This document shows positions 23,182-62,890 of a stretch of DNA of 64,000 bases, piece after piece. This DNA comes from Candidatus Babelota bacterium. GTDB lineage: Bacteria > Babelota > Babeliae > Babelales > JACPOV01. Position numbers and translations under genes: made by a program. How positions within the stretch are numbered: the stretch's first letter is position 1; every line of letters begins with the position of its first letter. Location: the NCBI GenBank assembly GCA_022707425.1, contig JAKJAQ010000001.1, positions 69,089 to 133,088 on the forward strand, read 5' to 3'. A model generated the notes under the pieces. It worked only from the letters and a program-made list of their open reading frames with translations, made no database searches and was not told the DNA's origin.

Positions 23182-23991
23182 CTAGACAATTCTGTAGTCT
23201 TTAGCGGAATAATTTAATTTTGAGTTTAATTTTGTGAATTGTTTTGTGGACATACTGATAGGTTTTGTTTTTGAATTAGGAATTTCTATTTCATGGCCGT
23301 TAATTTTAAGAAATTCAGCTATTCTTTTTGATTGCGTAGCAAGGCGCAATGTATTTTCAGAAATGTTGGCTCCTCGATGTTCGTAAAGGTATTTAAATGT
23401 AGTGAAGCCACGGATTGTAGTAATAAAATCAGTCAGACACATTTTTTGCCGATTATTTTTATTTTCTACCGTTATTATCACGTTGTTAATATTAAGATTT
23501 GGATAGTTGTTTGAAAGTAGATGTTGTATTTTTGTGGGCAATGTTCCATTTTTTATATATGAAATTGAAATTTTTTTGATATCATTAATGAATAAATCTA
23601 TCTCTTGCATTTCGCGCACTGATTTAATGTGTGTTAAGATTTGTGCAACTGAATCTATGCCATCAGACTCTTTTATTATCTGCGGCAAATTACTCAAAAG
23701 GTCAGCGTATTCTTCATAATTTGACTTGCTTTTTTTTGTAGGTGATTCATTATCATTTTGTTCTTGATTATCAAAGAGACGACGCTTTCCAGATACTTCA
23801 GCATTTCTGATTGGGATTTCTTTTGATTTTTTCCCAGGAGATTTTTGATTTTCCTTTTCCAAAAATACCGGATGTTTTTTGCCTGGTTTATTTCTAATGA
23901 CAAGAATTTCTTCATCAGAATTTTCCATTGCATCAATAATGTGAGATGTAGAAAAAGTAAATAAACATATAATAAAAAATAACTGTTTCAT
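23182..23991 (-). CDS. Exported orphan protein, paralog of 24060-24809 (leader-ME class)
   Basis: Leader MKQLFFIICLFTFSTSHIIDA followed by MEN. Shares SPGKK, a basic GKRRLF block and NGTL...L(N/D)(I/V)NN... with its neighbour. Confidence 0.6.
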   Translation of the reverse strand: MKQLFFIICLFTFSTSHIIDAMENSDEEILVIRNKPGKKHPVFLEKENQKSPGKKSKEIPIRNAEVSGKRRLFDNQEQNDNESPTKKSKSNYEEYADLLSNLPQIIKESDGIDSVAQILTHIKSVREMQEIDLFINDIKKISISYIKNGTLPTKIQHLLSNNYPNLNINNVIITVENKNNRQKMCLTDFITTIRGFTTFKYLYEHRGANISENTLRLATQSKRIAEFLKINGHEIEIPNSKTKPISMSTKQFTKLNSKLNYSAKDYRIV

Positions 23992-24059
23992 AAAGAGCCT
24001 TAATTTTCAGAATTATTTAATGAGGTATCAGCAAAGATGCATATTTAATCACAAATAAT

Positions 24060-24809
24060 TTAATCCAGAATGATTTTATTTAGGGTAAAACTAAGGGGCT
24101 TGGATTTTCTTTTACTTTTTTTTCTATGCCCAGTAATATTTGCGATCCTTGAACGGGGACATTGTTTGATGAGTTGTTCTGTTTGGTCTGTCAATTGAGC
24201 ATTATGGTTTGCAATTAAGTGGCTATACAGTGTTTCAGCTTTCATTTTTACTGCAAGATCAATAAGCTTGAACTGCTTTGTTTTTTTATTTGTGTTAATA
24301 ACTATTTCTAATTTAAAATTATTAACATCAAGTGAAGGATGTTTTTTAAGGATGTTTAACATTTCGCGCGCGAGGGTACCATTTGTAGAGTCACTTGGTC
24401 TGCTATAATTTTTAATTTTCTCAAAAAATTCGCGTGCTTCATCTTTTTTTGATGAAGGATTAAGTCCTAAAAGAAGAGTTGCAGCGTCGATTTCATCAGT
24501 TTCTTCTGACTGAACAAAATTAAATGGAGCTTGATCATTGGTGATATCAGAGTTTTGAATATTGAATTCAGCAAATTTTCTTTTGCCTACTCTTGATTGA
24601 TTATATAACGTTGGATTAGGAATCTTTTTTTTACCTGGAGAAAAGGTATTTCCATTTACATCGTCAATAATTTCGTCGCAATACAATGACATTTTTTTTT
24701 CTGGCTCAAGTGTTTCGTCACAATAAAGCGATCGGTTTTCCATTGCATTAACATTTTTGTACTGTGCTAAGCTTGCAATGATCGTGAGTAAAAGAAGTTT
24801 TTTTTTCAT
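24060..24809 (-). CDS. Exported orphan protein, paralog of 23182-23991 (leader-ME class)
   Basis: The ORF-track start at 24815 is a TTG. The ATG at 24809 (MKKKLLLLTIIASLA) has an AAAGG SD. Leader ...KNVNA followed by MEN. SPGKKK and GKRKF blocks. Confidence 0.6.
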   Translation of the reverse strand: MKKKLLLLTIIASLAQYKNVNAMENRSLYCDETLEPEKKMSLYCDEIIDDVNGNTFSPGKKKIPNPTLYNQSRVGKRKFAEFNIQNSDITNDQAPFNFVQSEETDEIDAATLLLGLNPSSKKDEAREFFEKIKNYSRPSDSTNGTLAREMLNILKKHPSLDVNNFKLEIVINTNKKTKQFKLIDLAVKMKAETLYSHLIANHNAQLTDQTEQLIKQCPRSRIANITGHRKKSKRKSKPLSFTLNKIILD

Positions 24810-24918
24810 AACCAACCTTTAGTTGTAATTTTACATATGAATTGAGAACTAAGAATATCGCGGTATTGCGGCAATTTGTCAATTGCTTTTAGAATTCACA
24901 TAGAAAGGAGCATGTATA

Positions 24919-28612: not shown

Positions 28613-29893
28613 ATGAGCAAATCGATGGAACCCAAAGTACAAGCATTACCGTTGTTGCCAGGTGTGTATTTGTTTAAAGACAAAGACAATGCCATAATTT
28701 ATGTTGGCAAGGCAAAAGCGCTGCGCAAAAGGGTTTCAAACTATTTTCAAAAACAACATATTGATTGGAAAGTAAAAGCGCTCATTGATGAACATGCAAC
28801 AATTGAGCATGTTGTAACGCATTCAGAGACCGAAGCATTGCTTTTGGAAGCACAACTGATAAGAGAACATCAACCCAAATTTAATGTGCTCCTCAAAACG
28901 GGCCAGCCATTTTTGTATATTCAGGTAACTAATGAAGAATTACCGCGTATGCTTTTAGTGCGTAATAAAAAAGGTAAAGGAACTCACTTTGGCCCCTTTT
29001 TGTTTAAACGTCCTGCGCGCGCTGGTTACGAATATTTAATGAAAACTTTTCGTCTTGAATTGTGCAATCAAAAAATTAAAGATGGTTGTTTAAAATATCA
29101 CATAGGTTTATGTGCTGGTTCATGTCGCGACGAATTTGATAAAGATAACTATATGTTGCGATTAGATTTAGCTATGAATGCATTGCGCGGCAACTACAAA
29201 GAATCGTTGTATCAATTAAGAAAATCAATTGCATTCTGTGCAGCGCGTTTTGAATTTGAAAAAGCGCAGCGACTTGTTACCTATTTACAAAACCTTGATA
29301 ATATTTTTGCAACATTGAAAGTGAAATTTTCTGAAAAAAAATACGAAAAAGAAGTTTCGCTTGCAACTGCTCCCGTAAAATTTTCACGCTCACCAAATAA
29401 AGATTTGGGATTTCAATTGCAGCATCTATTGCAACTACCACATGCGCCATCTTCAATTGATTGTTTTGATATTTCGCATTTTCAAAGCAGTGAAATTGTT
29501 GGTTCATGTGTTCGTTTTGTTGATGGTGTTCCGGATAAAAATAATTTTAGACGATTTGCGATAAAAACATTGCAACAGCAAAATGATTATGCTGCGCTTC
29601 AAGAAATTGTTGCGCGTCGTTACCGAAACATTGAAGACATGCCCGATTTAATTTTGATTGATGGTGGTAAAGGTCAACTCAGTTCAGTATCTGCATTATT
29701 TCCTGGAGTGCACATTGTAAGTTTGGCAAAGCGAGAAGAACGGTTGTTTAGTCAAAATTATCCGAACGGAATTGTGCTTGATCTACAAACAGAAGTTGGC
29801 AGACTATTAATAGCATTGCGAGATTATGCGCATCATTTTGCAATTTCATATCATCGCAAAAAAAGAGCAAAAAGATTGGAAGGTGCATTATGA
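28613..29893 (+). CDS. uvrC: Excinuclease ABC subunit C, short form lacking the C-terminal (HhH)2 domain
   Basis: GIY-YIG (GVYLFKDKDNAIIYVGKAKALRKRVSNYF), a UVR-like helix (FEFEKAQRLVTYLQNL), a 5'-endonuclease motif (CFDISHFQSSEIVGSCV) and RDYAHHFAISYHRKKR. It ends at 426 aa in an ATGA overlap with clpB. Confidence 0.8.
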   Translation: MSKSMEPKVQALPLLPGVYLFKDKDNAIIYVGKAKALRKRVSNYFQKQHIDWKVKALIDEHATIEHVVTHSETEALLLEAQLIREHQPKFNVLLKTGQPFLYIQVTNEELPRMLLVRNKKGKGTHFGPFLFKRPARAGYEYLMKTFRLELCNQKIKDGCLKYHIGLCAGSCRDEFDKDNYMLRLDLAMNALRGNYKESLYQLRKSIAFCAARFEFEKAQRLVTYLQNLDNIFATLKVKFSEKKYEKEVSLATAPVKFSRSPNKDLGFQLQHLLQLPHAPSSIDCFDISHFQSSEIVGSCVRFVDGVPDKNNFRRFAIKTLQQQNDYAALQEIVARRYRNIEDMPDLILIDGGKGQLSSVSALFPGVHIVSLAKREERLFSQNYPNGIVLDLQTEVGRLLIALRDYAHHFAISYHRKKRAKRLEGAL

Positions 29894-32563: not shown

Positions 32564-33949
32564 ATGGTCTGGCCGATAAATAGTGTACTCGTTTTGTTTT
32601 TGGTTTCATCAACTATATTGCGATCAATGGAGCAATCTGAACATTGTACCATTCCTGAGTTTAAGAAGGATGTAATACTTAATCTTAATAATCAACCGAT
32701 TAAGCTTGTACAATTTCAGGGCAACAATCTTTTGAGGTTAATGTTTCGTGAAAATGATTATCATTGTACTTTTTTTATTCATCGTGATCGCGAAAATAAA
32801 CTTTATTTGAATCCAATTATTCCCGAAAATGAATCGCTTGAGCAAATGAATCTGGATTATAGTTTACTTGATGCGATTGAAAGAGGTGATATTGATACCT
32901 GTCGCCAGCTAAAAAATGAAGCAAATTTTTCTGTTTTAGATGCGCGCCTTAAGTTTATATCTCCATTCAATATCATACGGCGAAGCGATCAAAAAATTTG
33001 TTCCTCTGAAGATATTGTGGCTGGTGAAGCATTTACGTTACAGATCAGTCAAAAACCAGCAGTTTATTGTTGGCCTTATGCAGATTCTTCTAATTTTTCT
33101 ATTATTCAGCAGTTAGAGCGTAATTATAATTATCATATTTTGAGAGAACTTATGTGTGATGAGAAGTTATATACATTTGAAATGAATCAAACGAAGTTGC
33201 TTGAAATCACTGGTTTCTTGAAAGTAGTACAAGCTGAGGAAAAAGAGTTGCCGTTTATGCAGGCGCTCATTCGTCTTTTAACCGATGAAAAAAGTTTAGA
33301 TCAATTATGCATTTGTCGCCTTGGCAAACTCTATGCAAAAATTATTGCACAGCAAGACTCGAAAGGTAAGCAGCTTATTTCTCAAATCCATGATTGGAAA
33401 AAATATCAAATTTTAAGAGGCCATATATTGCACTCGCTCAGTGAAATGGTCCGTATGCAACCTTACCAAGAAGCTCAATTAATTCCATCTAACTTCGTTG
33501 AATTATCAAAGCGCATTATGCAAGATGAGCTATTTTTAGAGTCGGTCAAAAGCAAAGAATTTTTTTCAAATGTGCTTTCATATAGCAAACTGTATGGTGT
33601 AGATGGGCAACATAAAGAATGGAGTGCGATATATTATCACATGCTTGCGCTTCTGTTAAAAAATGAAGAGGGTAAAATTTTTTTAAAAGAACTGTGCAAT
33701 AACAAAAATAATGAAAATCTTTTTAGTTCAACGATAAAACCGTTTATGCAAAACGCATTGTTTCGCAAGTTCGTAGTTCGGCAGCTTGTGTGCGCAAACC
33801 CACCGTTGAATGAACATGTTGCGCCACTTGTTTCTGAGCACTGGCAACCGGATGAAAAATTTATAAATTATTTTAAAGCATTAAAAATAAGCAAACGGAT
33901 GGCAAATAAGATTATTGAAATTGAAACAAAGAAGTTTAAAAAGCAATAA
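32564..33949 (+). CDS. Exported orphan protein (leader-ME class)
   Basis: Leader MVWPINSVLVLFLVSSTILRS followed by MEQ. The 461-aa ORF has no recognisable motif and lies directly upstream of the RING protein. Confidence 0.55.
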   Translation: MVWPINSVLVLFLVSSTILRSMEQSEHCTIPEFKKDVILNLNNQPIKLVQFQGNNLLRLMFRENDYHCTFFIHRDRENKLYLNPIIPENESLEQMNLDYSLLDAIERGDIDTCRQLKNEANFSVLDARLKFISPFNIIRRSDQKICSSEDIVAGEAFTLQISQKPAVYCWPYADSSNFSIIQQLERNYNYHILRELMCDEKLYTFEMNQTKLLEITGFLKVVQAEEKELPFMQALIRLLTDEKSLDQLCICRLGKLYAKIIAQQDSKGKQLISQIHDWKKYQILRGHILHSLSEMVRMQPYQEAQLIPSNFVELSKRIMQDELFLESVKSKEFFSNVLSYSKLYGVDGQHKEWSAIYYHMLALLLKNEEGKIFLKELCNNKNNENLFSSTIKPFMQNALFRKFVVRQLVCANPPLNEHVAPLVSEHWQPDEKFINYFKALKISKRMANKIIEIETKKFKKQ

Positions 33950-34006
33950 TATAAGTGCGAAAAATGATATATTTTAGTTATGTATAACTTTAATAAGGAG
34001 TTTTTT

Positions 34007-35017
34007 GTGAACAATAGATTGCCTATTTTTAGATTGATGTGTTTGCTGCTTTGTGCCAGCACGGTTGTTTTTGCAGATAATAATTCATGGGAATCATTTT
34101 GGGAAATGTTTTGGGGCCCAAAAATTAATTATTCGGCAGTTCAATTTGATGTGCAGGATGAATTAGATCGCTTATTTTTTAATAAATTAGAATTTATATC
34201 GCCCGAAATGCAAAACGTACGTTTTCAAATGAGTAAAAATATTGTTGAATTAATTAAATCATCTAATCTTGATTCCCAAGTGCAAGCAAAAGAACAGGCG
34301 GTTGCAGCGGTAAAGCCGGCGATAAAGCAATTTGTTGTTGATCTTGGAACGAAAAAAATTGTACAAGAAATTGGTTCATATTATCATGGCCGACCTCCGT
34401 ACAATCCTGAACAATTTGAACAGCGAATAAAACAGGAATTGGCACAACAAATTGATGATGCATTTCGTAAAAATAAAAATGTTACACAGCTGTTGAGCAT
34501 GAGTAAGCTTAAGGAAATTATTGAACAATACGATAATCAATATGCTCTTCAAGCTGGCGGTGTTTATCACAAATTAGATAAAGAATTGCCACAACTCTAT
34601 GCGGGTCAAACAGTTGCAGGAGAGGATGTGCCAGCGGGAGCACCGGTGGATAATGTACATGAACTTTATCCACAATTTAATGATAAAACCGCTGAAGGAC
34701 TGGAGCGTAATAAGAAATTTTATGGTCCATTTTTTGAAAAAGTAAAACAATTCCGCGCAGAAGAATGTCCAATTTGCAGCGAAAATTTTGATGCGCATTG
34801 TGCACGCGTAAATTTATATTGCGGACATTCATTATGTGCAACATGTTTAGCAGGACATGTGCATATTAATGATAAAAATCAATGTCCAACATGCAGACAA
34901 GAAGTGCGCGCATCAGAATTTCCGGTAAATTATTTACGCGATTTCATCAACCGGGAAGATCTCAAACAACAATTTCCCAGGATGCATGATAAAATACGCA
35001 GATTATTTAGGTTTTAA
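34007..35017 (+). CDS. Exported protein with a C-terminal eukaryote-type C3HC4 RING finger (putative E3 ubiquitin-ligase mimic)
   Basis: CPICSENFDAHCARVNLYCGHSLCATCLAGHVHINDKNQCPTCRQ gives C-x2-C-x14-C-x-H-x2-C-x2-C-x12-C-x2-C (nt 34766-34894). Hydrophobic leader. The GTG at 34007 lies 6 nt after AAGGAG; the ORF-track ATG at 33980 is the alternative. Confidence 0.75.
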   Translation: MNNRLPIFRLMCLLLCASTVVFADNNSWESFWEMFWGPKINYSAVQFDVQDELDRLFFNKLEFISPEMQNVRFQMSKNIVELIKSSNLDSQVQAKEQAVAAVKPAIKQFVVDLGTKKIVQEIGSYYHGRPPYNPEQFEQRIKQELAQQIDDAFRKNKNVTQLLSMSKLKEIIEQYDNQYALQAGGVYHKLDKELPQLYAGQTVAGEDVPAGAPVDNVHELYPQFNDKTAEGLERNKKFYGPFFEKVKQFRAEECPICSENFDAHCARVNLYCGHSLCATCLAGHVHINDKNQCPTCRQEVRASEFPVNYLRDFINREDLKQQFPRMHDKIRRLFRF

Positions 35018-46808: not shown

Positions 46809-46819
46809 TTTGAAGAGCT

Positions 46820-49014: not shown

Positions 49015-51736
49015 ATTGCTCAATTTTATGTACATGATCTGACCAACTATAATGTTGTTGCGCTTTTAATCGTGCGCGAGAGCCAGCTTCGTTTTGTTTC
49101 GTTACAGATAAGTTAACAAGAACACATATTGAATCAATAAATCCTTGCATATCGGTCGGTTCAACTAAAATGCCAACAAATTGATCGTTGTCTTTTGTAG
49201 TTGAGAGTTCATCTCTTGTAATAGCAGGCGAAATTACTTCGCTTAATTGTTCAAGATTTGAAGCAATGATTGGTTTTGCCATACTTAAATATTCAAACAA
49301 TTTTGTTGGAGAACCAAAGAAACGTGTTCCATCACGATTTGGTTGCGTTGGGCAAATAAAAGCATCACACGCAGCTAAATAATCTCGTGCACATTCCGCC
49401 GAAACTAAGCCGGTAAGTGTTACATAATCTGTTGAATTTGTACGCTCTATTTCTTGCACAAGATACGGTTTAAGCATGCCATCACCAATAAGAAGAAAAT
49501 GAATGGTGGGGCAATATTTGATAACGTGCGGAATAATTGATGCAATCATTTCAATGCCATGCCAAAATGAAAAAGTACCAACAAATCCGACCACAAATTT
49601 ATTCTCTATACATAACTGGGTACGGATTTTATGACGTGTTTGTATGAGCGCTAACGGATTATACACATCAGTATCTACACCGTTTGGATTAACTAATATT
49701 TTTCTTGGATCAATATTTTTTTCTATTAAATCATCTTTAAGTGCTTGAGAAACAACAATGATAGAATGCGCATACGTTAAATTAAGTGATTCAATAATTT
49801 GTGCATAAAAATTGAATTTAAACCATTTTTTTGGTGCTAATTGATGAAATTGCCACACTTCAGATCCGTTGTATTCTAAAATAAGTGGTATTTTATACCA
49901 ACTACTCAGTAATAAACCAGTGGCATTTAATAAACTATAGCGTTGATAAAGAGCATCAAATCGATTTTTTTTAAAAAGACGTCTCAATTTAAATGCAAAA
50001 AAAAATGTGGAAAATATACATTCAAGACGCCAGCGTAAATACCCTAATTTCCATCGCAACAGAAAAAACAACGGTGGTATTCGAAGATGAATAAAGTGTG
50101 AAGTAAAATTATTTTTTAAAATGGTCTGCATTGCTGATGATGCAATGATTATATTGGTGCCTTTTTTTTGAAATGCATTAATGACCCCGAGTGTATGAGC
50201 AATTGAACCGCCCGCAGTAATTTCGTCTGAGCAGATATCAGTGCGAAGATATAAGAGACTCTGTATGTTATTAATTAAAATAGGAGTTGAAGGGATCACT
50301 TTTGAGAAAAGTTTGACAATATATTCATGAATGTAGCGTGTTAGTTTTAATTGTTCATGAGGGGCAATAATGTGACTCATAAGGAGAGAAATCGGCCACA
50401 TGAGAACAACCAAAAGATAAAAAAGATAATGTGCATGGGTAAAAATGCAACATTCAATTAAGGTTAAATGAACAAAAAGAAGAACAATTAATTTAATGAA
50501 CCATCCAAATGAAAAAGGTGTTTGATACACTCGATTGCTTAAATAAAAGCTACAACTGCCATATAAGAAAAAACAAACAGAGTTTGCTAGAAAAATTCCC
50601 CACATATTAAATGAACCAGTCAATATAAGCAATGAGATTTGAGTTGCCAAAGCACCTATTCCTAAAACGGGAATATAGGTAGTTGTTGTGGAAAGAGTAA
50701 ACCCTGCTTGAAAAACGCGAGCAATTTCCAGAAAGATGAGTGGGATGAAAAAACCGGGCAGATATTTGAGAAGAAAGTGATATTTGTGCGGAAAAAAAAG
50801 CATTATTCCTGCAAATGAGCCAATAATAGTGAAAAGGCCAATTGTCACCAAAGCAAGAATAAAATAACGCATTAATTGTGAAATTAAAATGCGTTCGTTT
50901 TGCTCTTTTTGTGCATTGTAGATTAAAAGAGGCCATGCATCAATGAGCGCGATGGCAACAAATTGAAATAGAGCACCGAATCGCCATAAAAGAGCATAAA
51001 CTCCAAGCATTTCGTACCCGTGAACTTTTTGCAAATATAGGCGATCAACACTAAAAAAACTTGCATACATAAAACTATAAATAACAAGCGGCAAACTATA
51101 ATTTAATTGTTCTTTAAAAATTGAATATGAATAAAATCGATAATTCCAAAAAAGTTTTGCAAACACAGGCAGAAAAATAAAAAATGAACATGCATTACCA
51201 TACCACAATGCTTTGATTCGATAACCAAGAGAAATGCCAATTAAGGTAAGAATGGTTGCTATGATGTTTTGTCCGCAAAAAAAAACAAGATATGAAACCA
51301 CTTTTTCTTGCATGCGAATATAAGCAAGAACAAGAGAAAAAAGTGTAAAGAACGAAATGCTTAGGCTAATCAATAAAAGTTGAGAGAGATCAAACGAAAA
51401 AAAATGAAATTTATAGAGAAACAGAGCAACAAATGGAAACAGAAAAGCACCGCACAAGGCGGTTAATAATCCGTTGCCAATTGACTGCTTTTTTTTAATT
51501 TCATCATCTTGATAAAGAAGGTAAAATCTAATCATTCCCGTTGCGGCAACTGAAGAAAGAAGAAGCGTGCTATATGAAAAAATTAACTGATAAAAATCCC
51601 AAATGCCAAATTCTTCAAGTGTTAATTTCGAGAGTAAATATGGCAAAAAAAGGAAATTAATTGCGCGCACGAGGGTAGAACTGAGCGCAAAAAAGAACGA
51701 ATTGTAAGCTCCTCGCTTCATATAATTAAGTATCAT
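48995..51736 (-). CDS. Fusion protein: N-terminal Wzx/MOP-type polysaccharide flippase plus C-terminal GT4 glycosyltransferase
   Basis: The N-terminal ~490 aa are polytopic, with LVRAINFLFLPYLLSKLTLEEFGIW. The C-terminal ~420 aa (nt ~48995-50260) carry GGSIAHTLGVINAF and FICPTQPNRDGTRFFGSPTKLFEYLSMAKPIIASNLEQLSEVI, paralogous to 43227-44447. It overlaps the convergent gene by 20 nt. Confidence 0.7.
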   Translation of the reverse strand: MILNYMKRGAYNSFFFALSSTLVRAINFLFLPYLLSKLTLEEFGIWDFYQLIFSYSTLLLSSVAATGMIRFYLLYQDDEIKKKQSIGNGLLTALCGAFLFPFVALFLYKFHFFSFDLSQLLLISLSISFFTLFSLVLAYIRMQEKVVSYLVFFCGQNIIATILTLIGISLGYRIKALWYGNACSFFIFLPVFAKLFWNYRFYSYSIFKEQLNYSLPLVIYSFMYASFFSVDRLYLQKVHGYEMLGVYALLWRFGALFQFVAIALIDAWPLLIYNAQKEQNERILISQLMRYFILALVTIGLFTIIGSFAGIMLFFPHKYHFLLKYLPGFFIPLIFLEIARVFQAGFTLSTTTTYIPVLGIGALATQISLLILTGSFNMWGIFLANSVCFFLYGSCSFYLSNRVYQTPFSFGWFIKLIVLLFVHLTLIECCIFTHAHYLFYLLVVLMWPISLLMSHIIAPHEQLKLTRYIHEYIVKLFSKVIPSTPILINNIQSLLYLRTDICSDEITAGGSIAHTLGVINAFQKKGTNIIIASSAMQTILKNNFTSHFIHLRIPPLFFLLRWKLGYLRWRLECIFSTFFFAFKLRRLFKKNRFDALYQRYSLLNATGLLLSSWYKIPLILEYNGSEVWQFHQLAPKKWFKFNFYAQIIESLNLTYAHSIIVVSQALKDDLIEKNIDPRKILVNPNGVDTDVYNPLALIQTRHKIRTQLCIENKFVVGFVGTFSFWHGIEMIASIIPHVIKYCPTIHFLLIGDGMLKPYLVQEIERTNSTDYVTLTGLVSAECARDYLAACDAFICPTQPNRDGTRFFGSPTKLFEYLSMAKPIIASNLEQLSEVISPAITRDELSTTKDNDQFVGILVEPTDMQGFIDSICVLVNLSVTKQNEAGSRARLKAQQHYSWSDHVHKIEQFIVRSL

Positions 51737-51828
51737 CCAACGCTCCCGTTTTTTTAAAATTTTACTGTATTTAGTATAATTGATTTAAGTTAAAAAAAAT
51801 GAAACAAAAAAAGGTAATGGAGAAGAGA

Positions 51829-52986
51829 ATGAATATTATGGGATGTCGTTTTACGCATCTTTTAGCAACAATGGCAGGATACCAAAAAACAGGAATTTCA
51901 TTAATCGAATGGGATGGCAATCAATTATTACCAACATCTTGTGCTGATGATCTAGGCATTTATATTCTTCTGCCTAAACTTGCGACATTTTTTGGTCTTA
52001 GTATTGAGCAAGCAATTTCATATTTTTTTTATATTCTTCTTATTGTCCCAGCGGCGATTGGCATTATTGGTTTTTGTGCAGTGTATAAACACATTGTTCA
52101 GCGATTTATAGCTGTTTTTGGCGTGCTTTTACTTACGCTTTTTGCCAAAGCCGTAGGCGACGTATATTTGTGTTATAGCTCTAGTTTGCTTTTAATTCTT
52201 CCTTTTACCGTTTATTTTTTTGAAAACAGAAAGTTTGACAACCTTTTTTTGTTTTTTTGTCTGAGCATAGGTTTCATGGTAACAACATTGCAATTTATAC
52301 GATCGTATAGTGCTATTGCTCCATTAATTTTTTTTCTTATACTGATGCTCCTTGATATACAGCTTTCAATAATACGCAAGCTCATTTTTATTGGAACATG
52401 TGCAGTTGGTATGATGATGCCACTTTTCTATTTTAATGCTGTGCAGAATGAATCTTTGCGATATGCAATCCAAAATAATCTGATTGATACTAAGCAAGAA
52501 AAAAAACATCCACTGTGGCACACATTGTATGTAGGTTTTGGATTATTGCATTTCAAAAATGAACACCAGATCGCTTATGATGATTCATGCGCTGCCAAAA
52601 AAGTTCAATCAATTGATAATTCGATAGCTTACTGTTCGGCAGAATATGATGCGATATTAAAAAATGAAGTAATTAATCTTTTTAAATATCATTTTTTGTT
52701 TGTGTTGTTAACGCTTTTTGCAAAACTAGGAGTACTTTTTTATTTTTTATTGAAATTTGCAAATGTTGGCCTTATTGCAGCACTTTTTTATCCTAAATCA
52801 TGGGTTATTGAATTGGGTTTCTTCTTTGCACTGGCATTTAATTCATTATTCGTCTTTATTGCCATGCCAATTCATGAATATGCACTCGGGTTTATTGCAG
52901 CCGCTGCTCTTTATGGAATTGTAAGTATAAATCATGCACTGTCTAAGTTAAAACGAGTGAAATTGCCGCTATTCATATTTAGATAA
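51829..52986 (+). CDS. Polytopic membrane protein, family B copy 2
   Basis: GISLIEWDGNQLLPTSCADDLGIYILLP and HPLWHTLYVGFGLL align with 47812-49014. The ATG at 51829 (MNIMGCRF) follows GGAGAAGAG; the ORF-track ATG at 51799 is the alternative. Confidence 0.6.
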   Translation: MNIMGCRFTHLLATMAGYQKTGISLIEWDGNQLLPTSCADDLGIYILLPKLATFFGLSIEQAISYFFYILLIVPAAIGIIGFCAVYKHIVQRFIAVFGVLLLTLFAKAVGDVYLCYSSSLLLILPFTVYFFENRKFDNLFLFFCLSIGFMVTTLQFIRSYSAIAPLIFFLILMLLDIQLSIIRKLIFIGTCAVGMMMPLFYFNAVQNESLRYAIQNNLIDTKQEKKHPLWHTLYVGFGLLHFKNEHQIAYDDSCAAKKVQSIDNSIAYCSAEYDAILKNEVINLFKYHFLFVLLTLFAKLGVLFYFLLKFANVGLIAALFYPKSWVIELGFFFALAFNSLFVFIAMPIHEYALGFIAAAALYGIVSINHALSKLKRVKLPLFIFR

Positions 52987-53068: not shown

Positions 53069-54196
53069 ATGAATAATAGTAAACATATTGTTTGGATGTA
53101 TATTTTTTTAGTTTTTATTTTATCGCAAAAACATGTTTTTTGTATGGAACAGGAACATGATTCTGATGAAAATAAACGAAAAAAAGAAAAATTAATTACA
53201 GAGCAAAGACAAAAATTATTAAAAAAGCATGCTTCTTCACCTTCATTGAATGGTGATCCATTTAAATATATACAAGAAAATAATTATGAAAAATTAAAAG
53301 GGTTAGCTGTTTTAGATCCATCGCTTAGAAAATTTAATAAAGATGGTGAATCAACTTCTTTGTTGCTGGCTGCCATTATCAATGTAAAAAAACAAAGAAA
53401 AAAACAATCTACCGTGGCACGAGCAATTCTCGGCTTGATGCTTAAATGTCCAAACATAAATGAACAAATATTGAATGAAGCGCTCGATTACGCAAAAATC
53501 CAGGTGAATCTGAGTAAAGACGAAAAAACTAAGGCAACAATGAACGATGTTGTTTTTGCCTTAAACAGTGTTATTTCACTTTCTGCGATGAAAAAAACGG
53601 CTGAAAAAAAAATTAAAGAATTCAAAGAAGATCCCAAATCATTTGATGATTACAAAAAGCTCATTCAGGCAGAGCAAAATGTTGACAATAATAATAATGA
53701 AAATGTGCCGCGCAAAAGATCTGAAAGTGTGGTAAAAAAAATGAAAGAAGAAACAAACAAAGATAAGGAGAAATTTTTTAAATTTCTCCAAGATGGCCCG
53801 CCGATTGCTCAACAAAAAAAAGAAAAGAAAAACATAAAAAAAAGAGAGAAACAAGACCAAATCGTGCTGAATCAAGCAGAACATCGAAAAAATATATTTG
53901 ACCGACTCAGACTTCCATGGGGTAATTCAAACGAAAAAAAACTGGAAATGATAACTAAGCAATTACAGAATCAAAAAATAACATCGACTTTAAAGCACGA
54001 AAATGCGCCACCACCGGCCAATAGTATTATTTCATCAAGTTCTTTTTCGAATAGCAATCCTAATTTAACTATCGGTCTAAGTCATAGTGCTGATGAAAGT
54101 CCTAAAAGTTCAAGCTTGGAAAAATATTACGGTCAACCAGGAATAAAACAACCGAAAAAAAAGTTTGATCCTGATAACAATAATAATAATCAGTAA
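53069..54196 (+). CDS. Exported Lys/Glu/Asn-rich orphan protein (leader-ME class)
   Basis: The ATG at 53069 follows AAGGGGGA. Leader MNNSKHIVWMYIFLVFILSQKHVFC followed by MEQ. Low-complexity basic blocks (KKEKKNIKKREK) and a poly-Asn tail. Confidence 0.55.
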   Translation: MNNSKHIVWMYIFLVFILSQKHVFCMEQEHDSDENKRKKEKLITEQRQKLLKKHASSPSLNGDPFKYIQENNYEKLKGLAVLDPSLRKFNKDGESTSLLLAAIINVKKQRKKQSTVARAILGLMLKCPNINEQILNEALDYAKIQVNLSKDEKTKATMNDVVFALNSVISLSAMKKTAEKKIKEFKEDPKSFDDYKKLIQAEQNVDNNNNENVPRKRSESVVKKMKEETNKDKEKFFKFLQDGPPIAQQKKEKKNIKKREKQDQIVLNQAEHRKNIFDRLRLPWGNSNEKKLEMITKQLQNQKITSTLKHENAPPPANSIISSSSFSNSNPNLTIGLSHSADESPKSSSLEKYYGQPGIKQPKKKFDPDNNNNNQ

Positions 54197-54276: not shown

Positions 54277-55740
54277 ATGATGTTAAATCGATCAAATATA
54301 GTTGTAATTATCATTACAGCTTTTTTAATTGTTGGCGCAACAATTGGTGTGTGGCAATGGCAACAACACAAAATGTCGCGTTCTATTTCAAAAATTGAGA
54401 ATGTAAAAAATATCGTTCCTGTAGTGGTAATAGGTTCAGGCCCAGCAGGATTAAGTGCTGCTTTGTATACCGCACGCGCCAAGTTTAAGACAATAATTTT
54501 CACTGGTGCACAACCGGGTGGTGATTTGACCGGTGTGCGTGAAATTGAAAACTGGCCAGGCAAAGAAAAACTTACGGGCATTCATGCTGTTGATGATTTG
54601 ACAGCGCAAGCGCAACATTTCGGTGCTGAAATTATCAATGACACCGTAAAAACAATTAATACTGATAAGTGGCCGTTTCAAATTACTACTGAAGATGGTA
54701 AAACAATAAATGCACTGGCTGTTGTAATTGCAGCGGGAGGAACGGCAAAAAAATTAAAAGTTCCTGGTGCTCTTGAATATTGGGGAAAAGGAGTGGGAAG
54801 TTGCACGATTTGTGAAGCGCCATTCCAAAAAGGTAAAGATGTGACGGTCATTGGTGGTGGTGACACGAGTGCGGATCGCGCATTGCAATTGTCTGCTTAC
54901 GCCAACAATGTTTATTTAGTGGTCAGGGAATCGCGTCTAACCGCATGCGGTACCGTGCAAGATTATTTAAAGAAAGCGCAAAATATTCATATTTTATTAA
55001 ATACGCAGTTATTAGAAATTAAAGGCAATGATGATGGTGTTTCTGGTATGGTGACCAAAGATGTTAAAACGGGAAAAGAGACCGAAACGCCTATTAAAGC
55101 ACTTTATTTTGCTATCGGCTACCAGCCAAATTCCGAATGGTTGAAGTCGTCGGTTCATACAGATAAAGAAGGTTTTATTGTTGTTGAGCAGTATTCCCAA
55201 AAAACAAATATCCCGGGAATCTATGCAGCAGGAAACGTTGCACTTTCAGATAAAGCCTATGGTAAAGCAGGTGTAGCAACGGGCAGTGGTGTAAAAGCAG
55301 GAATGGATGCAATTGAATTCCTGGAAAATATTGGTTTTGTTCCAGAAGTTGCTGAAAAAATGGAAGATCAATTTTTTATCGATGAACATGCACAAACGCC
55401 AATAAAAGGTATTACTACCAAAGAGGAACTTACACGCACCGTTAAAGAAAACCCACGAAAATTAGTGCTTGTTGATTTTTATGGCGAATATTGTCCGATG
55501 TGCCGCAAAATGATGCCAACATTGCAATCCCTTGCAAAAGATGAAGCACAAAGTCTTGTTATTTTAAAAGCTGAACAAACAAAATCGACCGTATTAACAA
55601 AAGAATTTAATGTTACTTCTGTTCCTTGTTTATTTCTTTTAAAAAATGGAAAGAAAATTTGGGAATGCAAAGACACCATAGAGGCGAATGTGCTTGAAAA
55701 GACCGTAAAGTCATACTGTTCTATTGGCAACGGAGAGTAA
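54277..55740 (+). CDS. trxB: Thioredoxin reductase fused to a C-terminal thioredoxin domain, with an N-terminal TM helix
   Basis: N-terminal helix IVVIIITAFLIVGATIGVW. FAD motif VVVIGSGPAGLSAALY, redox CTIC in GVGSCTICEAPF, and NADPH motif VIGGGDTSADRA. C-terminal Trx fold VLVDFYGEYCPMCRKMMP. AGGGGGA SD. Confidence 0.85.
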   Translation: MMLNRSNIVVIIITAFLIVGATIGVWQWQQHKMSRSISKIENVKNIVPVVVIGSGPAGLSAALYTARAKFKTIIFTGAQPGGDLTGVREIENWPGKEKLTGIHAVDDLTAQAQHFGAEIINDTVKTINTDKWPFQITTEDGKTINALAVVIAAGGTAKKLKVPGALEYWGKGVGSCTICEAPFQKGKDVTVIGGGDTSADRALQLSAYANNVYLVVRESRLTACGTVQDYLKKAQNIHILLNTQLLEIKGNDDGVSGMVTKDVKTGKETETPIKALYFAIGYQPNSEWLKSSVHTDKEGFIVVEQYSQKTNIPGIYAAGNVALSDKAYGKAGVATGSGVKAGMDAIEFLENIGFVPEVAEKMEDQFFIDEHAQTPIKGITTKEELTRTVKENPRKLVLVDFYGEYCPMCRKMMPTLQSLAKDEAQSLVILKAEQTKSTVLTKEFNVTSVPCLFLLKNGKKIWECKDTIEANVLEKTVKSYCSIGNGE

Positions 55741-57596: not shown

Positions 57597-57646
57597 GGTA
57601 ATGATTAACAGTTATGGGATTAATTGTAATAAATGGTGAAGGTAAA

Positions 57647-57916
57647 ATGTTGTGTTTTGTATTTATTATATCTGCGGTTACTTTGTGTTTAAACATGAAT
57701 GCAATGGATACTAATTGGCAGGAAAAAAAACTTCAAGATCAAAAGAAATTGTATTTAAAGGCTGCAAATCAATTTTTTTCCGCACATCAAGAGTTTGCAA
57801 ATACACCCCATGGTCAGCAAGTGCTCGAATGTGGTCAATTTGCCTATGACCAAGCAAAAAACAAAGAAAGCTCATTGCAAGATAGATTAGAAAAAAAAGA
57901 AACAAACAAAGAATAA
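57647..57916 (+). CDS. Small exported protein, tandem array member 1
   Basis: The ATG at 57647 follows GGTGAAGG. Leader MLCFVFIISAVTLCLNMNA followed by MD. Lys/Glu/Gln-rich helical body. Confidence 0.55.
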   Translation: MLCFVFIISAVTLCLNMNAMDTNWQEKKLQDQKKLYLKAANQFFSAHQEFANTPHGQQVLECGQFAYDQAKNKESSLQDRLEKKETNKE

Positions 57917-57938
57917 TAATCATAAATCGGAGGATGAT

Positions 57939-58262
57939 ATGTTTAAATTTATTTTGATTTCAATTACTGGCATTACGTTTGGATTGTCACTAAACGCGAT
58001 GGAGAATAATAAGAACGGCTCGCCAATAAAAGATAAGCAAAATGCCTTCAACAGATGTATGGCTGCGGAATGGAAAAAGCAGGCTAACTCTGTAGCAAAA
58101 TTCGCTGATAAAATTAATAACAATTCAACTATCTCGGCTGCTGAGAAAGCTCTCTGCCTTGGTGGATTGAAAGAAGATTTCAAATCTAAAATAAATAAAG
58201 CCGATAGTTATGCTGCTGGATTTGATGCTCGTCGTCAAGAAACTAATGACAAAAAAGATTAA
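57939..58262 (+). CDS. Small exported protein, tandem array member 2
   Basis: GGAGGA SD. Leader MFKFILISITGITFGLSLNA followed by MENNKNGSPIKDKQ. Clear paralog of member 3. Confidence 0.65.
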   Translation: MFKFILISITGITFGLSLNAMENNKNGSPIKDKQNAFNRCMAAEWKKQANSVAKFADKINNNSTISAAEKALCLGGLKEDFKSKINKADSYAAGFDARRQETNDKKD

Positions 58263-58293
58263 TTATATTGTTTGTAACATAAAGGATTATTTA

Positions 58294-58617
58294 ATGTTTA
58301 AATTTAATTTAGTTTTAATGGCTGGTCTTGTGTGTGGGTTGTCGCTGAGCGCAATGGAAAAGAAAGAAGGCTCGCCATTAAAAGACCAGCAATTTATGCG
58401 CTTGGAAAAAATGCGCAAAAAATTTCGTAATGAAGTCAAGATATTAGGAAGTTTTGCTGGTGCAATTACTAATGATCCTAATTTGCCTGAAGCTGAGAAA
58501 GTTCAATCTACTGATGCATTAAAAGAAAAATATAAAGATCGCGTAGAAAAATGTGAACAATTTGAAGCTGCCATAAATGTTCGTCGCAAAATCCTTGATG
58601 ACGATAAAAAAGCTTAA
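58294..58617 (+). CDS. Small exported protein, tandem array member 3
   Basis: The ATG at 58294 follows AAAGGA. Leader MFKFNLVLMAGLVCGLSLSA followed by MEKKEGSPLKDQQ. The ORF-track start at 58210 is an upstream extension overlapping member 2. Confidence 0.65.
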   Translation: MFKFNLVLMAGLVCGLSLSAMEKKEGSPLKDQQFMRLEKMRKKFRNEVKILGSFAGAITNDPNLPEAEKVQSTDALKEKYKDRVEKCEQFEAAINVRRKILDDDKKA

Positions 58618-58655
58618 AAACGAAACAGGGAATAATATTTAAAGAAGGGATTTAT

Positions 58656-58913
58656 ATGTTTAAATTTTTTTCATTTTTAGTTTTAAGTAGTTTTATAGCT
58701 ACAACGGTTTGCATGGAACAAAACACTCAAGAAAAAAGTGCACGTGAGCTCTCAAATGGAGCCTTTAAAACATTAGCAAAGCCTTCTGCTCATCCGTTTA
58801 TTTTTATAGTATCTCGGGGCAAGGCGCAATGGCTTTACGAAAAAGCCAATAATCAAATTTTGAATGACTTTGAACACAAAGATCGTAAAAACGATCCAAT
58901 AAAATATGAATAA
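58656..58913 (+). CDS. Small exported protein, tandem array member 4
   Basis: GAAGGGA SD. Leader MFKFFSFLVLSSFIATTVC followed by MEQ. Confidence 0.6.
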   Translation: MFKFFSFLVLSSFIATTVCMEQNTQEKSARELSNGAFKTLAKPSAHPFIFIVSRGKAQWLYEKANNQILNDFEHKDRKNDPIKYE

Positions 58914-58932
58914 ATACACCAAGAAAGATGAT

Positions 58933-59226
58933 ATGTTGACAATTAGATTGTTAATGCTGACTATTTTATTTCCGTATGCATGTCTTGCTATGGAATTGAA
59001 GCCGAATAATAAAAATCCGATTGATCCGCAAATGGCGAAATTAGCATACAAAGCATCGAGAAATTTGAATTTAGGCCATGGACTTATCAATTTGAGTTCT
59101 CGGGAGGATGATCCGGAAATCAAAAAGTCACAAATGAGTTATGCTTATAAAAAATTTGAGCGAGCTAACTATTGTGTTGATCAAATAAAAGAGCGCGTCA
59201 ATTATCCGGAAAGTCGAAAAGAGTAG
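58933..59226 (+). CDS. Small exported protein, tandem array member 5
   Basis: Leader MLTIRLLMLTILFPYACLA followed by MEL. The start at 58933 gives the 19-aa leader seen in the siblings. The ORF-track ATG at 58906 is the alternative. Confidence 0.5.
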   Translation: MLTIRLLMLTILFPYACLAMELKPNNKNPIDPQMAKLAYKASRNLNLGHGLINLSSREDDPEIKKSQMSYAYKKFERANYCVDQIKERVNYPESRKE

Positions 59227-59251
59227 AAAGATTACTTGAAAGGAACATGCA

Positions 59252-59542
59252 ATGTTTCAATTTTTTTTAGTTGTGTTGATAAGCATTGGTTGTTGTTTAC
59301 CTTTGATAGGTATGGAAAATGTTGAAAATAATACGCAGAGATCAAAGGTTTCTTCTTCTCAATCATCTCCTAAGGCGCTAGCCTATGAAAAATTCAATGA
59401 AAAGTTGAAAGCTTTGGCAGAAGGTAATGCGACACAAGCTCAAGTAAAAGAAGCTAATCTAGAATACGAACGAGAAAGAGCAAAAGAGGACGAAGCGCGA
59501 AGCGAGCGTGTCCGAAGAAATCTTTTTTCTGACAGAGAATAG
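59252..59542 (+). CDS. Small exported protein, tandem array member 6
   Basis: AAAGGA SD. Leader MFQFFLVVLISIGCCLPLIG followed by MEN. Charged helical body. Confidence 0.6.
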   Translation: MFQFFLVVLISIGCCLPLIGMENVENNTQRSKVSSSQSSPKALAYEKFNEKLKALAEGNATQAQVKEANLEYERERAKEDEARSERVRRNLFSDRE

Positions 59543-60796: not shown

Positions 60797-60798
60797 TA

Positions 60799-61611
60799 TT
60801 AAATGATCAAATGTGCAGGAACAGATTCCTCCTGCATGGTAAGATTAATTTCATGCACATCAACAATTAGACCATCAAGAATGGCACTGCTTTTTTCTAT
60901 AAATGATTCTTTATCACTTGTTACAAAGAATTCAACCGTTGGTTGATTGTTTTCATCTGTCGTCAACGTTGAAAGTATTGTATCTTCAGCAGAAATAATA
61001 CAAACGTCTGGGCCCATAATGTGTGCGATCTGTGTACGCACTAAAGCATAATGCGTGCAACCTAAAATAAGAGTATCAACCTTATTTTGTTTCAATGATT
61101 CTAGATAATGTTCAAGTAAGCTATTAATGTGAGAATGATTTCTTTCTTGCTGCTCAAGTGCAGGTACTAATTGTGGGCAGGCTTGTTCCACAATCTCAAA
61201 CCGCGGATTTAATGATAACAATGCATTTTTATGCGCATGTTGTCGAATCGATGCGGTGGTTGCAATCACGCCAATTTTATTATTTTTTGTTATTTTTGCT
61301 GCAGTGCGTACAACCGAATCTACCACGCCCAAGAAAGGCAGCTTCACAAATGAATTACACAGAAAGTCATAAGCAATAGCAGATGAAGTGTGGCATGCAA
61401 TCACACAAAGATCAATTTCTTGTTGGGCAAAAAAAGAAACTATTTGATGTGAAAATTGCTTAATCTGCTGAGGTGTTTTGTTTCCATAGGGCAAATTTGC
61501 GGTATCGGCAAGGTAAAGATAATGCGCTGGATAATGGGCAATTAGTTTATTTAGGATTGTTAATCCTCCAAGGCCCGAATCAAAAACGCCGATTTTTTTA
61601 TATTGTTTCAT
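60799..61611 (-). CDS. murI: Glutamate racemase
   Basis: IGVFDSGLGGLT, IACHTSS and LGCTHY (the two catalytic Cys contexts). The stop lies 2 nt from the convergent nusB stop. Confidence 0.9.
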   Translation of the reverse strand: MKQYKKIGVFDSGLGGLTILNKLIAHYPAHYLYLADTANLPYGNKTPQQIKQFSHQIVSFFAQQEIDLCVIACHTSSAIAYDFLCNSFVKLPFLGVVDSVVRTAAKITKNNKIGVIATTASIRQHAHKNALLSLNPRFEIVEQACPQLVPALEQQERNHSHINSLLEHYLESLKQNKVDTLILGCTHYALVRTQIAHIMGPDVCIISAEDTILSTLTTDENNQPTVEFFVTSDKESFIEKSSAILDGLIVDVHEINLTMQEESVPAHLII

Positions 61612-61615
61612 TCAT

Positions 61616-62890
61616 TCAACCATTAGTTAATAGATACCAAAAGCAATCTAGGATTGAAAATTTACTCGCAGGTCTTTCATGCTCAACTAAAAACTTTTCG
61701 TTAAAATACGTGCGGTATGCTTCGGGCAATTGTTCAAAATCCTCTTTTTGTTGTCTTTCTTGCTGTTGATCTAAAGCCCATAATAGAATTTTTTTGTGAT
61801 TGGTTGTTTTGAATTGTTCATTTAAGAATTTGATATTTTCATCTGATAGATTTTCGAATAAATTTTTCATAAAAACGAAAATATGACTAAAATGCCAAAT
61901 ATCGATGCCGCCGTTTGATGATAATGATGCAAAAATTGGAGAATTTCTTTGAAGATCAAAAGAACGAATAAAATTATGTTGAGGTTCCAAAACTGAAACA
62001 ATTGCACTTTTTTCTGGCTTAATTAGGTAAATCTTACCCTCTGAAAGAGCGGTGAGTATATTATGTGTGTCACTCCAGCGCAAATTAGTTGGTTTTTTCA
62101 GTTTTATTTCAGTTTCATTATCGCTAACATCAAAAGTTTTATATTTTTTGATTGATACATTATTATTTTCCTCTGCAACATAAGCTAATATTGTGCCTGG
62201 GCCATTAGAAGTGATATGCCCAATGGTTTTTTGATCATCATTAATAATATTTTCTTGGTGCATAGAGTCATAAAGGGCGAAAATACCGTTATTTTTTGTT
62301 CCAATGAGTAAATGGTTGTCATTCCAGTATAATGAGGTAGGTAATGCATTTACTTGGTGTACAGCTATTTCATTTATCCTGTTTTTAGGATAAACACGGA
62401 CCTGATTTATTTCATTCATGATGAGAGCAAATTTTTCCCCTGAAGGGTGCCAACTTATTCCAGCTACTGTTTTAGGAAGTTCCAATAGATGTGAAACTTT
62501 TAATAAATCATGAGCATTTTCAGATTGCCAAAGTTTTATTTCCTTACCCCCAACCGTGATGAGATTGTTTTCCGTAGGGCTATAGGAAAGAAATGAAATT
62601 GGAGATGGATGGTTGTAATGAGACTCATCAAAGTTTACCGATTTTTCTGCAAAGTTTAATTCTGCTTTTGTAAAATCATATGTTTTTTCTTGAGGAATGA
62701 TTTGGGTTCCATTGTGATTTATACCTATATTGAATTCATCAATATGGGAATAATCACAAAATAGAGGTTGTGGGCTTACCGTTGCTATAATGTTCTGTTT
62801 TGCTTGTTCTGTTAATTGTTCTGATTCTTTTTCCATCGATTGTACATTAAAAAATAGGCTTAACAGAGCAATAAAAAATATATAATTCAT
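61616..62890 (-). CDS. Exported WD40/beta-propeller repeat protein (leader-ME class)
   Basis: Leader MNYIFFIALLSLFFNVQS followed by MEK. Repeats include LSYSPTENNLITVGGKEIKLWQ, ISWHPSGEKFALIM and FASLSSNGGIDIWH. AAGGAA SD. 4 nt upstream of murI. Confidence 0.65.
   Translation of the reverse strand: MNYIFFIALLSLFFNVQSMEKESEQLTEQAKQNIIATVSPQPLFCDYSHIDEFNIGINHNGTQIIPQEKTYDFTKAELNFAEKSVNFDESHYNHPSPISFLSYSPTENNLITVGGKEIKLWQSENAHDLLKVSHLLELPKTVAGISWHPSGEKFALIMNEINQVRVYPKNRINEIAVHQVNALPTSLYWNDNHLLIGTKNNGIFALYDSMHQENIINDDQKTIGHITSNGPGTILAYVAEENNNVSIKKYKTFDVSDNETEIKLKKPTNLRWSDTHNILTALSEGKIYLIKPEKSAIVSVLEPQHNFIRSFDLQRNSPIFASLSSNGGIDIWHFSHIFVFMKNLFENLSDENIKFLNEQFKTTNHKKILLWALDQQQERQQKEDFEQLPEAYRTYFNEKFLVEHERPASKFSILDCFWYLLTNG

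Follow-up and report, generated by a model that had tools for sequence, protein, structure and literature searches.

In a 64-kb stretch of a Candidatus Babelota genome (64,000 nucleotides of contig JAKJAQ010000001.1, hereafter the window), eleven exported proteins carry a hydrophobic N-terminal leader followed directly by Met and then by Glu or Asp. The source bacterium belongs to Candidatus Dependentiae, the TM6 phylum, a widespread and barely studied group of obligate protist parasites. Three culture systems represent the phylum, Chromulinavorax in Spumella, Babela in Acanthamoeba and Vermiphilus in Vermamoeba. As judged from their sequences, the leaders are genuine Sec-type signal peptides, and about a third of the exported Dependentiae proteins sampled carry such a leader then Met. 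The signature recurred in other Dependentiae contigs, which confirms it and extends it to a phylum-level feature. We give about an even chance to the explanation that the Met-acidic mature N-terminus is a protein-level, selected feature marking accessory, probably host-directed exported proteins, whose fate would be set after Sec export.

The eleven N-termini had been listed in an earlier note on this DNA, and all of them stood when translations and codons were read again; a gene cut by the end of the window adds a twelfth carrier. The carrier genes of the window are the following.

23182..23991, minus strand: orphan exported protein of 269 aa, leader MKQLFFIICLFTFSTSHIIDA, then MEN; ME codons 23923-23928; no Pfam match; paralog of 24060.
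24060..24809, minus strand: orphan exported protein of 249 aa, leader MKKKLLLLTIIASLAQYKNVNA, then MEN; ME codons 24738-24743.
32564..33949, plus strand: orphan exported protein of 461 aa, leader ...STILRS, then MEQ; ME codons 32627-32632.
53069..54196, plus strand: Lys-rich low-complexity orphan of 375 aa, leader ...QKHVFC, then MEQ; ME codons 53144-53149; no Pfam match.
57647..57916, plus strand: array gene 1, leader MLCFVFIISAVTLCLNMNA, then MD; MD codons 57704-57709.
57939..58262, plus strand: array gene 2, leader ...GLSLNA, then MEN; ME codons 57999-58004.
58294..58617, plus strand: array gene 3, leader ...GLSLSA, then MEK; ME codons 58354-58359.
58656..58913, plus strand: array gene 4, leader ...IATTVC, then MEQ; ME codons 58713-58718.
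58933..59226, plus strand: array gene 5, leader ...PYACLA, then MEL; ME codons 58990-58995.
59252..59542, plus strand: array gene 6, leader ...CLPLIG, then MEN; ME codons 59312-59317.
61616..62890, minus strand: WD40 beta-propeller protein of 424 aa, leader MNYIFFIALLSLFFNVQS, then MEK; ME codons 62831-62836.
62898..64000, minus strand: second WD40 gene, cut by the window end, the twelfth carrier; sister-strain N-terminus MQHLLVIFFLSFFQVHA, then MHNEH (VHA|MHNEH).

The array (57614-59542) encodes six proteins of ~65-90 aa in their mature form. Its members keep the signature attributed to them, with two of the earlier starts revised: the open reading frames (ORFs) of genes 1 and 5 open at 57614 and 58906, yet a Shine-Dalgarno-like site precedes 57647 in the former, and the two genes most likely begin at the internal ATGs 57647 and 58933. 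The junction codons of the window carriers are ATG GAA, ATG GAG or ATG GAT. Only two pairs of paralogs, 23182/24060 (E = 1e-11) and 57939/58294 (E = 3e-21), were detectable by blastp among them, and the signature therefore recurs in several unrelated genes.

All eleven window leaders and those of 45 curated carriers have the same n-h-c form, with a length of 17-29 residues and a mode at 19-20. In the window carriers, the n-region is short and often basic, the core is hydrophobic and uncharged, and the c-region ends in A, S, G or C with L, I, V, S or T at position -3. Residue counts on the curated set gave A17, S12, G7, T5 and C4 at -1, and L17, I9, V5, S5, T4 and A3 at -3. The carriers thus display the n-region, the hydrophobic core, the small -1 and the small or aliphatic -3 residue of Sec/signal peptidase I substrates, with cleavage predicted. 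Beyond the junction, residues +3 to +17 are more hydrophilic in carriers than in non-carriers (mean Kyte-Doolittle index -1.01 versus -0.29, p = 5e-6), a difference also seen within the window between 11 carriers and 11 non-carriers (p = 3e-4). The leaders do not form a homologous family of the kind of the SVM signal (PF12113), as no leader-family Pfam match was obtained for the 17 carriers scanned (9 from the window and 8 from elsewhere; array genes 57647, 58656 and 58933 were left out). Leaders of unrelated carriers gave only matches of <=14 nt with one another in blastn-short, and a mobile leader cassette was rejected for want of such DNA similarity.

The frequency of the signature was measured with a home-made gene caller and a signal-peptide heuristic requiring a hydrophobic core and a polar region after the leader, in which the best -3/-1 site was chosen and the +1 residue ignored. 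The Dependentiae sample (~264 kb) consisted of the neighbourhoods of the anchor genes clpB, uvrC and glyA. Controls were 80 loci of many phyla at ~60% identity, from a scan of contigs with GlyA, together with the non-Dependentiae matches of a UvrC scan. Counts were as follows.

Window, 64 kb: 24 signal-peptide-like N-termini; Met at +1 in 8; Met-Asp/Glu at +1/+2 in 8.
Other Dependentiae, 11 loci, 200 kb: 79 signal-peptide-like N-termini; Met at +1 in 25; Met-Asp/Glu in 12.
Non-Dependentiae controls, 149 loci, 2.26 Mb: 375 signal-peptide-like N-termini; Met at +1 in 12; Met-Asp/Glu in 0.
Controls with GC <= 42%, 66 loci: 161 signal-peptide-like N-termini; Met at +1 in 2; Met-Asp/Glu in 0.

Fisher tests against the controls gave p = 5e-11 for the window and p = 1e-12 for the other Dependentiae loci. 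Around the blindly predicted cleavage site, Met reached 32% at +1 in Dependentiae (n = 103) and 0-8% at the other positions from -8 to +9, as compared to a flat 0-3% in controls (n = 375). The heuristic placed the cleavage site exactly before ME in 8-9 window carriers, depending on the minimum ORF length. The earlier note had made its idea depend on an excess over base composition and on a motif lying next to the cleavage site: on the sampled loci the excess was found, with a sharp peak at +1 that controls lack, and the predicted sites abut the Met exactly. Its remark that Met at +1 is unusual for signal peptidase I substrates also agrees with the controls, where 3% have Met at this position and none of 375 has Met followed by Asp or Glu. 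Since no such case occurred among the 161 low-GC controls, AT-richness is not the cause of the signature.

The other Dependentiae loci were gathered in three ways. ClpB homologs with 71-84% identity, from sources named Dependentiae or Babeliales, led to loci L082-L090; a Dependentiae UvrC profile run on metagenomes returned ~9 Dependentiae-like contigs and led to L092 and L093; L028 is the contig of a Dependentiae metagenome-assembled genome from the GlyA scan. Carriers were read at these loci as listed below.

L028: PLVG|MEANS.
L082: HLCA|MEDEY and TLFT|MDNEK.
L086: FLCA|MENTF.
L087: seven cases, including the WD40 protein PLQS|MEAPEDD.
L088: eleven cases, namely four WD40 proteins (ME, MD, MD, MD), two ankyrin proteins (MK, MK) and five orphans (ME, MR, MK, MH, MK).
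L092: three cases.
L093: six cases.

The core signature is thus broader than the Met-Glu/Asp first described: it is a signal peptide plus Met, with Glu or Asp as the commonest +2 residue and others occurring, such as the MK and MR of L088. Counts at +2 over the 45 curated carriers were E 21, D 8, K 5, Q 3, R 2, N 2, L 2, H 1 and G 1. Asp or Glu accounts for 29 of these 45 residues (64%) versus 10% in the next 20 residues (p = 2e-18). Non-carriers have one of these two amino acids at +2 in 14% of cases, and ordinary Dependentiae proteins, in which residue 2 is chiefly Asn or Lys, have one there in 6%.

The junction is also the part that diverged relatives keep. Among the six array paralogs, which are 13-20% identical, just two columns are invariant, those of the initiator Met and of the junction Met. 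The A-M-E-N at the junction of 23182 and 24060 (30% identity) is invariant while their h-regions are wholly different. An exhaustive search with the WD40 protein 61616 against 1.8 billion representatives recovered two true homologs, P0147 (37% identity) and P0148 (27%). The DNA of P0147 encodes MNTLNFLLLFSILCTVAMNA then METGYS (...AMNA|METGYS), and that of P0148 encodes MQQLITSFFLIISLNICA then MENENS (...NICA|MENENS). At 27-37% identity the WD40 homologs have kept a leader then ME or MH, and these leaders are open and hydrophobic. A homolog search with a WD40 carrier of L088 recovered only generic WD40 proteins.

Public automated gene calls begin these WD40 genes at the junction Met or at a nearby ATG ('MENENS...' for P0148, 'MNAMETG...' for P0147 and 'MHNEH...' for L173). 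The affected calls are L171 62-1375 and 1381-2679, L173 3263-4528 and window 62898-64000. With such starts, the in-frame signal peptide of 17-20 residues is dropped, so that such leaders are under-annotated in databases.

The carriers are proteins of 80-867 aa that have no Pfam match or belong to the WD40 and ankyrin repeat proteins, and no enzymatic or housekeeping Pfam domain was found in those scanned. The window also encodes eleven proteins with a signal peptide that lack the motif: the C11 peptidase, the thioredoxin, an outer membrane protein (OMP)-like protein, the VanX/M15 protein, a RING protein, three STELLO-like proteins and the products of 37506, 38214 and 55777. Over all Dependentiae loci, non-carriers include C11, thioredoxin, M15, STELLO, OmpA, M23, SBP and GspC proteins. 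Every recognisable envelope or periplasmic function was that of a non-carrier, in agreement with the view of the earlier note that housekeeping envelope proteins are free of the motif. The same holds for the RING-finger protein, already singled out as lacking the motif despite its leader. RING genes with a signal peptide adjoin clpB in every Dependentiae lineage sampled, at 33980-35017 in the window and in L082 (13416-14294), L084 (13413-14291), L086 (13171-14196) and L087 (6418-7380 and 12742-13677). The leaders of RING and UCH proteins are followed by D, Q or K at the predicted mature start, and never by Met, in all five lineages seen. In the eukaryotic cytosol, such a D, Q or K start would be a destabilising N-terminal residue. 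The proposal of a dedicated sorting or cleavage motif marking a distinct exported class thus survives in part: its restriction to orphan, WD40 and ankyrin proteins was seen, a role in sorting or cleavage is conjectural, and the RING and UCH proteins exclude a universal host-delivery tag.

Carriers occupy variable slots of a syntenic block ordered M50 - OMP-like - x - PGI - Zwf - Gnd - UvrC - ClpB - x - RING. Gene 32564 sits between clpB and the RING gene, a place taken in L082 and L084 (83-84% ClpB identity) by a GNAT acetyltransferase gene (12570-13358). In the same two relatives, the slot of 23182/24060 (4300-4950) is held by a small ankyrin or orphan gene.

The explanation that we favour would run as follows. 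The precursor would be translated from the upstream ATG with its Shine-Dalgarno-like site, exported through Sec and cut by signal peptidase I after a small residue (A/S/G/C/T at -1, with L/I/V/S/T at -3), at a position that is predicted. The mature protein would then begin with Met-Glu/Asp, or less often Met-Lys/Gln/Arg/Asn/His, ahead of a very hydrophilic stretch. Purifying selection would hold this Met-acidic start as a property of the protein and not as a start codon. The signature would mark fast-evolving accessory exported proteins (orphans, WD40 and ankyrin proteins) and be absent from housekeeping periplasmic and outer-membrane proteins. The defined mature N-terminus may decide the fate of the protein after Sec export, possibly through recognition for passage beyond the periplasm, type II secretion being at hand, and alternatively or additionally through persistence in the host cytosol. 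Methionine aminopeptidase leaves in place a Met followed by Asp, Glu, Asn or Gln; such a start does not act as an Arg/N-degron and falls in the NatB substrate class. A Met-acidic start, neither trimmed nor read as a degron, would thus resemble a native NatB-type N-terminus. The +2 spectrum, in which E and D largely exceed K, Q, R, N and H and hydrophobic or small residues are almost absent, is compatible with such a eukaryote-like Met-Glu/Asp N-terminus.

The type II secretion system belongs to the core of TM6 genomes, being kept in 7/7 compared (PMC4776705). Type II secretion genes were also seen a few kb from clpB, at 19473-22559 in L086, 20879-22577 in L089 and 18884-22565 in L090; these three loci encode the secretin GspD, and L086 also has a GspC identified by Pfam. 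Their presence is consistent with a route through Sec and then type II secretion for the exported proteins.

Several observations weigh against this explanation. The RING and UCH proteins, which have leaders and are clearly host-directed, start with D, Q or K instead of the motif; hence the motif is not a universal host-delivery tag, and some host-directed proteins do without it. The residue at -1 is unfavourable (P, N), or that at +2 hydrophobic or small (ML, MG), in a few carriers. Several small Dependentiae-like contigs have no carrier and L089 and L090 have one each, which indicates that the density of carriers varies with lineage or neighbourhood. The cleavage sites are predictions of a crude -3/-1 heuristic of our own making and not of SignalP, the control set includes many transmembrane false positives, and the ~264 kb sampled surround clpB, uvrC and glyA instead of covering whole proteomes. 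The step in the host cytosol draws only on textbook eukaryotic N-terminal processing, and NatB normally acts co-translationally.

The alternative with the best case is that the junction Met is a fossil start codon. Genes that were once leaderless, either host-derived or born de novo, would have been lengthened at their 5' end, through T-rich DNA, as far as an in-frame ATG further upstream, and would so have acquired a signal peptide, leaving the Met as a functionless relic. A Met is exactly what a former start codon leaves, and gene callers can still begin at the junction ATG. The carriers are young orphans or WD40 and ankyrin proteins, which are normally cytosolic in eukaryotes; they stand in variable slots between conserved genes, as 32564 does where L082 and L084 have the acetyltransferase gene, and their leaders, unrelated in DNA, fit independent births. 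However, a neutral Met should decay, and this one is the only invariant non-initiator column at 13-20% identity and is kept in every diverged family examined. The share of Asp/Glu at +2 is also well above that at residue 2 of ordinary Dependentiae proteins (64% versus 6%), and the predicted cleavage site abuts the Met exactly, with no scatter. A general need of Sec for an acidic early mature region was rejected as well, given that non-carriers have only 7-14% Asp/Glu at +1/+2. The acidic bias at +2 is thus explained neither by a plain fossil start codon nor by a general Sec preference. We regard the fossil start as rather unlikely to account for the signature, although it may be its origin without being the reason for its maintenance.

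The junction ATG could instead be a second initiation site, giving both an exported precursor and a leaderless cytoplasmic isoform. The junction codon is always ATG, bacterial N-terminal proteoforms with differing localisation are known (PMC13515050), and in three relatives the start picked by automated callers is the junction ATG or one close to it. By inspection, an AAGG/GGAG-type Shine-Dalgarno-like site was seen 5-12 nt upstream of the first ATG in 11/11 window carriers and before the junction ATG in 0/11. When a scripted criterion was applied to a cross-locus set of 37 carriers, such sites preceded 26/37 first ATGs, 2/37 junction ATGs and 13% of other internal Met codons. Local structure was weakest around first ATGs (mean minimum free energy -3.2 kcal/mol) and strongest around junction ATGs (-6.4), with the other internal Met codons in between (-5.3). 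The upstream purine content was 62% for first ATGs, 40% for junction ATGs and 52% for the other internal Met codons. Junction ATGs therefore lack the initiation signals expected of a proteoform pair, with structure and purine content like or worse than those of ordinary internal Met codons, which disfavours the leaderless isoform put forward as an alternative in the earlier note. Leaderless isoforms of WD40, ankyrin or orphan proteins would moreover serve no evident purpose in the bacterial cytoplasm, and the acidic preference at +2 would be left unexplained. On these grounds a dual start appears quite improbable.

It is still less credible, and in our opinion very unlikely, that the leader is an annotation artefact, that is, untranslated 5' sequence with the junction Met as the only real start. 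T-rich upstream DNA does translate into hydrophobic peptides, and the junction Met is where some public gene calls start. Nevertheless, the leader is in every carrier an open, in-frame stretch of 17-29 codons that shows a basic n-region, an h-region and small residues at -1/-3, and a Shine-Dalgarno-like site and a low-structure region lie at the upstream ATG. Leaders remain open and hydrophobic in the homologs at 27-37% identity, and the housekeeping cytoplasmic genes of the same loci have no such extensions. Chance or base composition, suggested only by the small size of a single window, is scarcely conceivable in view of 0 M[DE] in 375 controls and 0 in 161 low-GC controls, Fisher p values of ~1e-11 to 1e-12 and a single sharp peak at +1.

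The signature was also compared with known systems. The carrier leaders themselves are ordinary Sec/signal peptidase I leaders in their n-h-c architecture, their length of 17-29 residues and their small -1/-3 residues; what differs is the +1 Met, found in 3% of control proteins and in about a third of the proteins here, where it is conserved and class-specific. The lipoprotein signal (lipobox L-[AS]-[GA]|C, cut by signal peptidase II) offers a parallel, in that an invariant +1 residue after the leader defines a separate exported class with a downstream fate of its own. However, the +1 residue of all carriers is Met and not Cys, Cys occurs only at -1 (HVFC|M, TTVC|M), an L-x-x-C box is missing and Met is not a residue that can be lipidated; membership was thus rejected. 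A twin-arginine signal was not found either, as no window leader contains RR. Type IV prepilin and type II pseudopilin signals do not fit, given that in the carriers the hydrophobic segment precedes the Met and the sequence after it is strongly hydrophilic.

There is also a functional likeness to the export element of Plasmodium (PEXEL/HT, RxLxE/Q/D). In this parasite a mature N-terminus reading x-E/Q/D specifies export into the host cell, even when made by signal peptidase (PMC10653839), and the mature start M-(E/D, some Q/N) of the carriers resembles it. Plasmodium is a eukaryotic parasite in which plasmepsin V cleaves downstream of an endoplasmic reticulum (ER) signal, with an RxL element and with acetylation in the ER; the carriers are bacterial, with no known translocon and no R-x-L before the Met, the resemblance being confined to the mature end x-(E/D/Q). 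Lacking RxL, they are not members of the PEXEL class, and the resemblance is to be taken as a functional analogy. By this analogy, the signature could tentatively be seen as a bacterial counterpart of a PEXEL-type mature N-terminus code. Hundreds of Sec-exported proteins would reach the protist cytosol, carried by vesicles or by type II secretion, and selection would require signal peptidase cleavage to leave them with an N-terminus native to eukaryotes. Methionine aminopeptidase would not trim such a NatB-type N-terminus and N-degron pathways would not see it; it would serve as a ticket for onward secretion, as protection from the N-degron pathways of the host or as both. We hold this extension to be doubtful, although, if true, it would mean that the export leaders of the phylum carry a readable effector label. 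If the succession of leader, Met and polar (mostly acidic) residue separates accessory, fast-evolving, eukaryote-like proteins from housekeeping envelope proteins, it would be the first computable effector label for the phylum. The rule would also indicate that the mature N-terminus of effectors secreted through Sec is under a constraint so far unrecognised.

Host-directed proteins that leave through Sec with a cleavable leader are known from phytoplasma (SVM signal) and from the ankyrin proteins of Babela and Chromulinavorax. The SVM leaders of phytoplasma form a homologous set; in contrast, the carrier leaders share no sequence. Signal peptides were reported on 44% of the coding sequences of Chromulinavorax destructans (PMC6561590) and on 79/126 ankyrin proteins of Babela (PMC4378268), and the ankyrin proteins of both that bear them are presumed to reach the host by secretion (PMC4378268; PMC6561590). 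These reports describe the presence of leaders only. No +1 Met or Met-Glu/Asp rule is mentioned in the Chromulinavorax, Babela and TM6 comparative-genomics papers (PMC6561590, PMC4378268, PMC4776705), and the leader-then-Met signature is apparently undescribed in these sources. With alternative-initiation proteoforms the carriers share an internal ATG, in frame and immediately behind a targeting sequence, which could give two isoforms with different localisation (PMC13515050), without the Shine-Dalgarno, open-structure and purine-rich hallmarks at the junction. We describe the signature as a residue rule that adjoins a signal peptide and defines a class, with a presumed role after export.

Little can be read from the folds of the carriers. 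A search with 32564 in 5.8 billion proteins matched only its own cluster, and the AlphaFold2 (AF2) model of its mature part was unusable (predicted local distance difference test, pLDDT, of 40). The AF2 model of array protein 57939 shows a mature part folded as a two-helix hairpin (pLDDT 82) with a disordered MENNKNGS start, and had no match with E < 1 in the PDB. Three of the orphans (23182-23991, 24060-24809 and 53069-54196) contain Lys/Arg clusters resembling nuclear localisation signals (SPGKK, GKRR/GKRK, KRKKEK and KKEKKNIKKREK), which hint at a possible targeting to the host nucleus. The C-terminal end of 53069 is a poly-Asn run (DNNNNNQ).

The window has a GC content of 31-39% and contains housekeeping genes (IF-2, NusA, NrdAB, PGI-Zwf-Gnd, a short UvrC, ClpB, GlyA, EF-P, NusB and MurI), together with a glycosylation cluster and numerous genes that are small or orphan. 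Scans of the 64 kb for tRNA and Rfam families gave no match. A 1230-aa ORF at 289-3981 has no Pfam match, and no gene with exactly the same product was found in the assembly collection. The short UvrC (~420-433 aa; 28613-29893 in the window, and present at all ClpB loci L082-L090) has only the GIY-YIG and RNase H-like endonuclease domains, and its gene lies within 50 nt upstream of clpB in 6/8 Dependentiae lineages sampled, with intervening genes in L087 and L088. The product of 54277-55740 is a thioredoxin reductase with a thioredoxin domain fused at its C-terminus and a transmembrane segment at its N-terminus.

Within the cluster of methyltransferase, asparagine synthase and glycosyltransferase genes (39825-52986), two similar ORFs of ~400 aa with no Pfam match (47812-49014 and 51799-52986) stand on either side of a gene for a 913-aa membrane glycosyltransferase. 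The three STELLO-like glycosyltransferase-domain proteins with signal peptides are paralogs (35408-36475, 36475-37311 and 38827-39684), STELLO being a family known from plant Golgi proteins.

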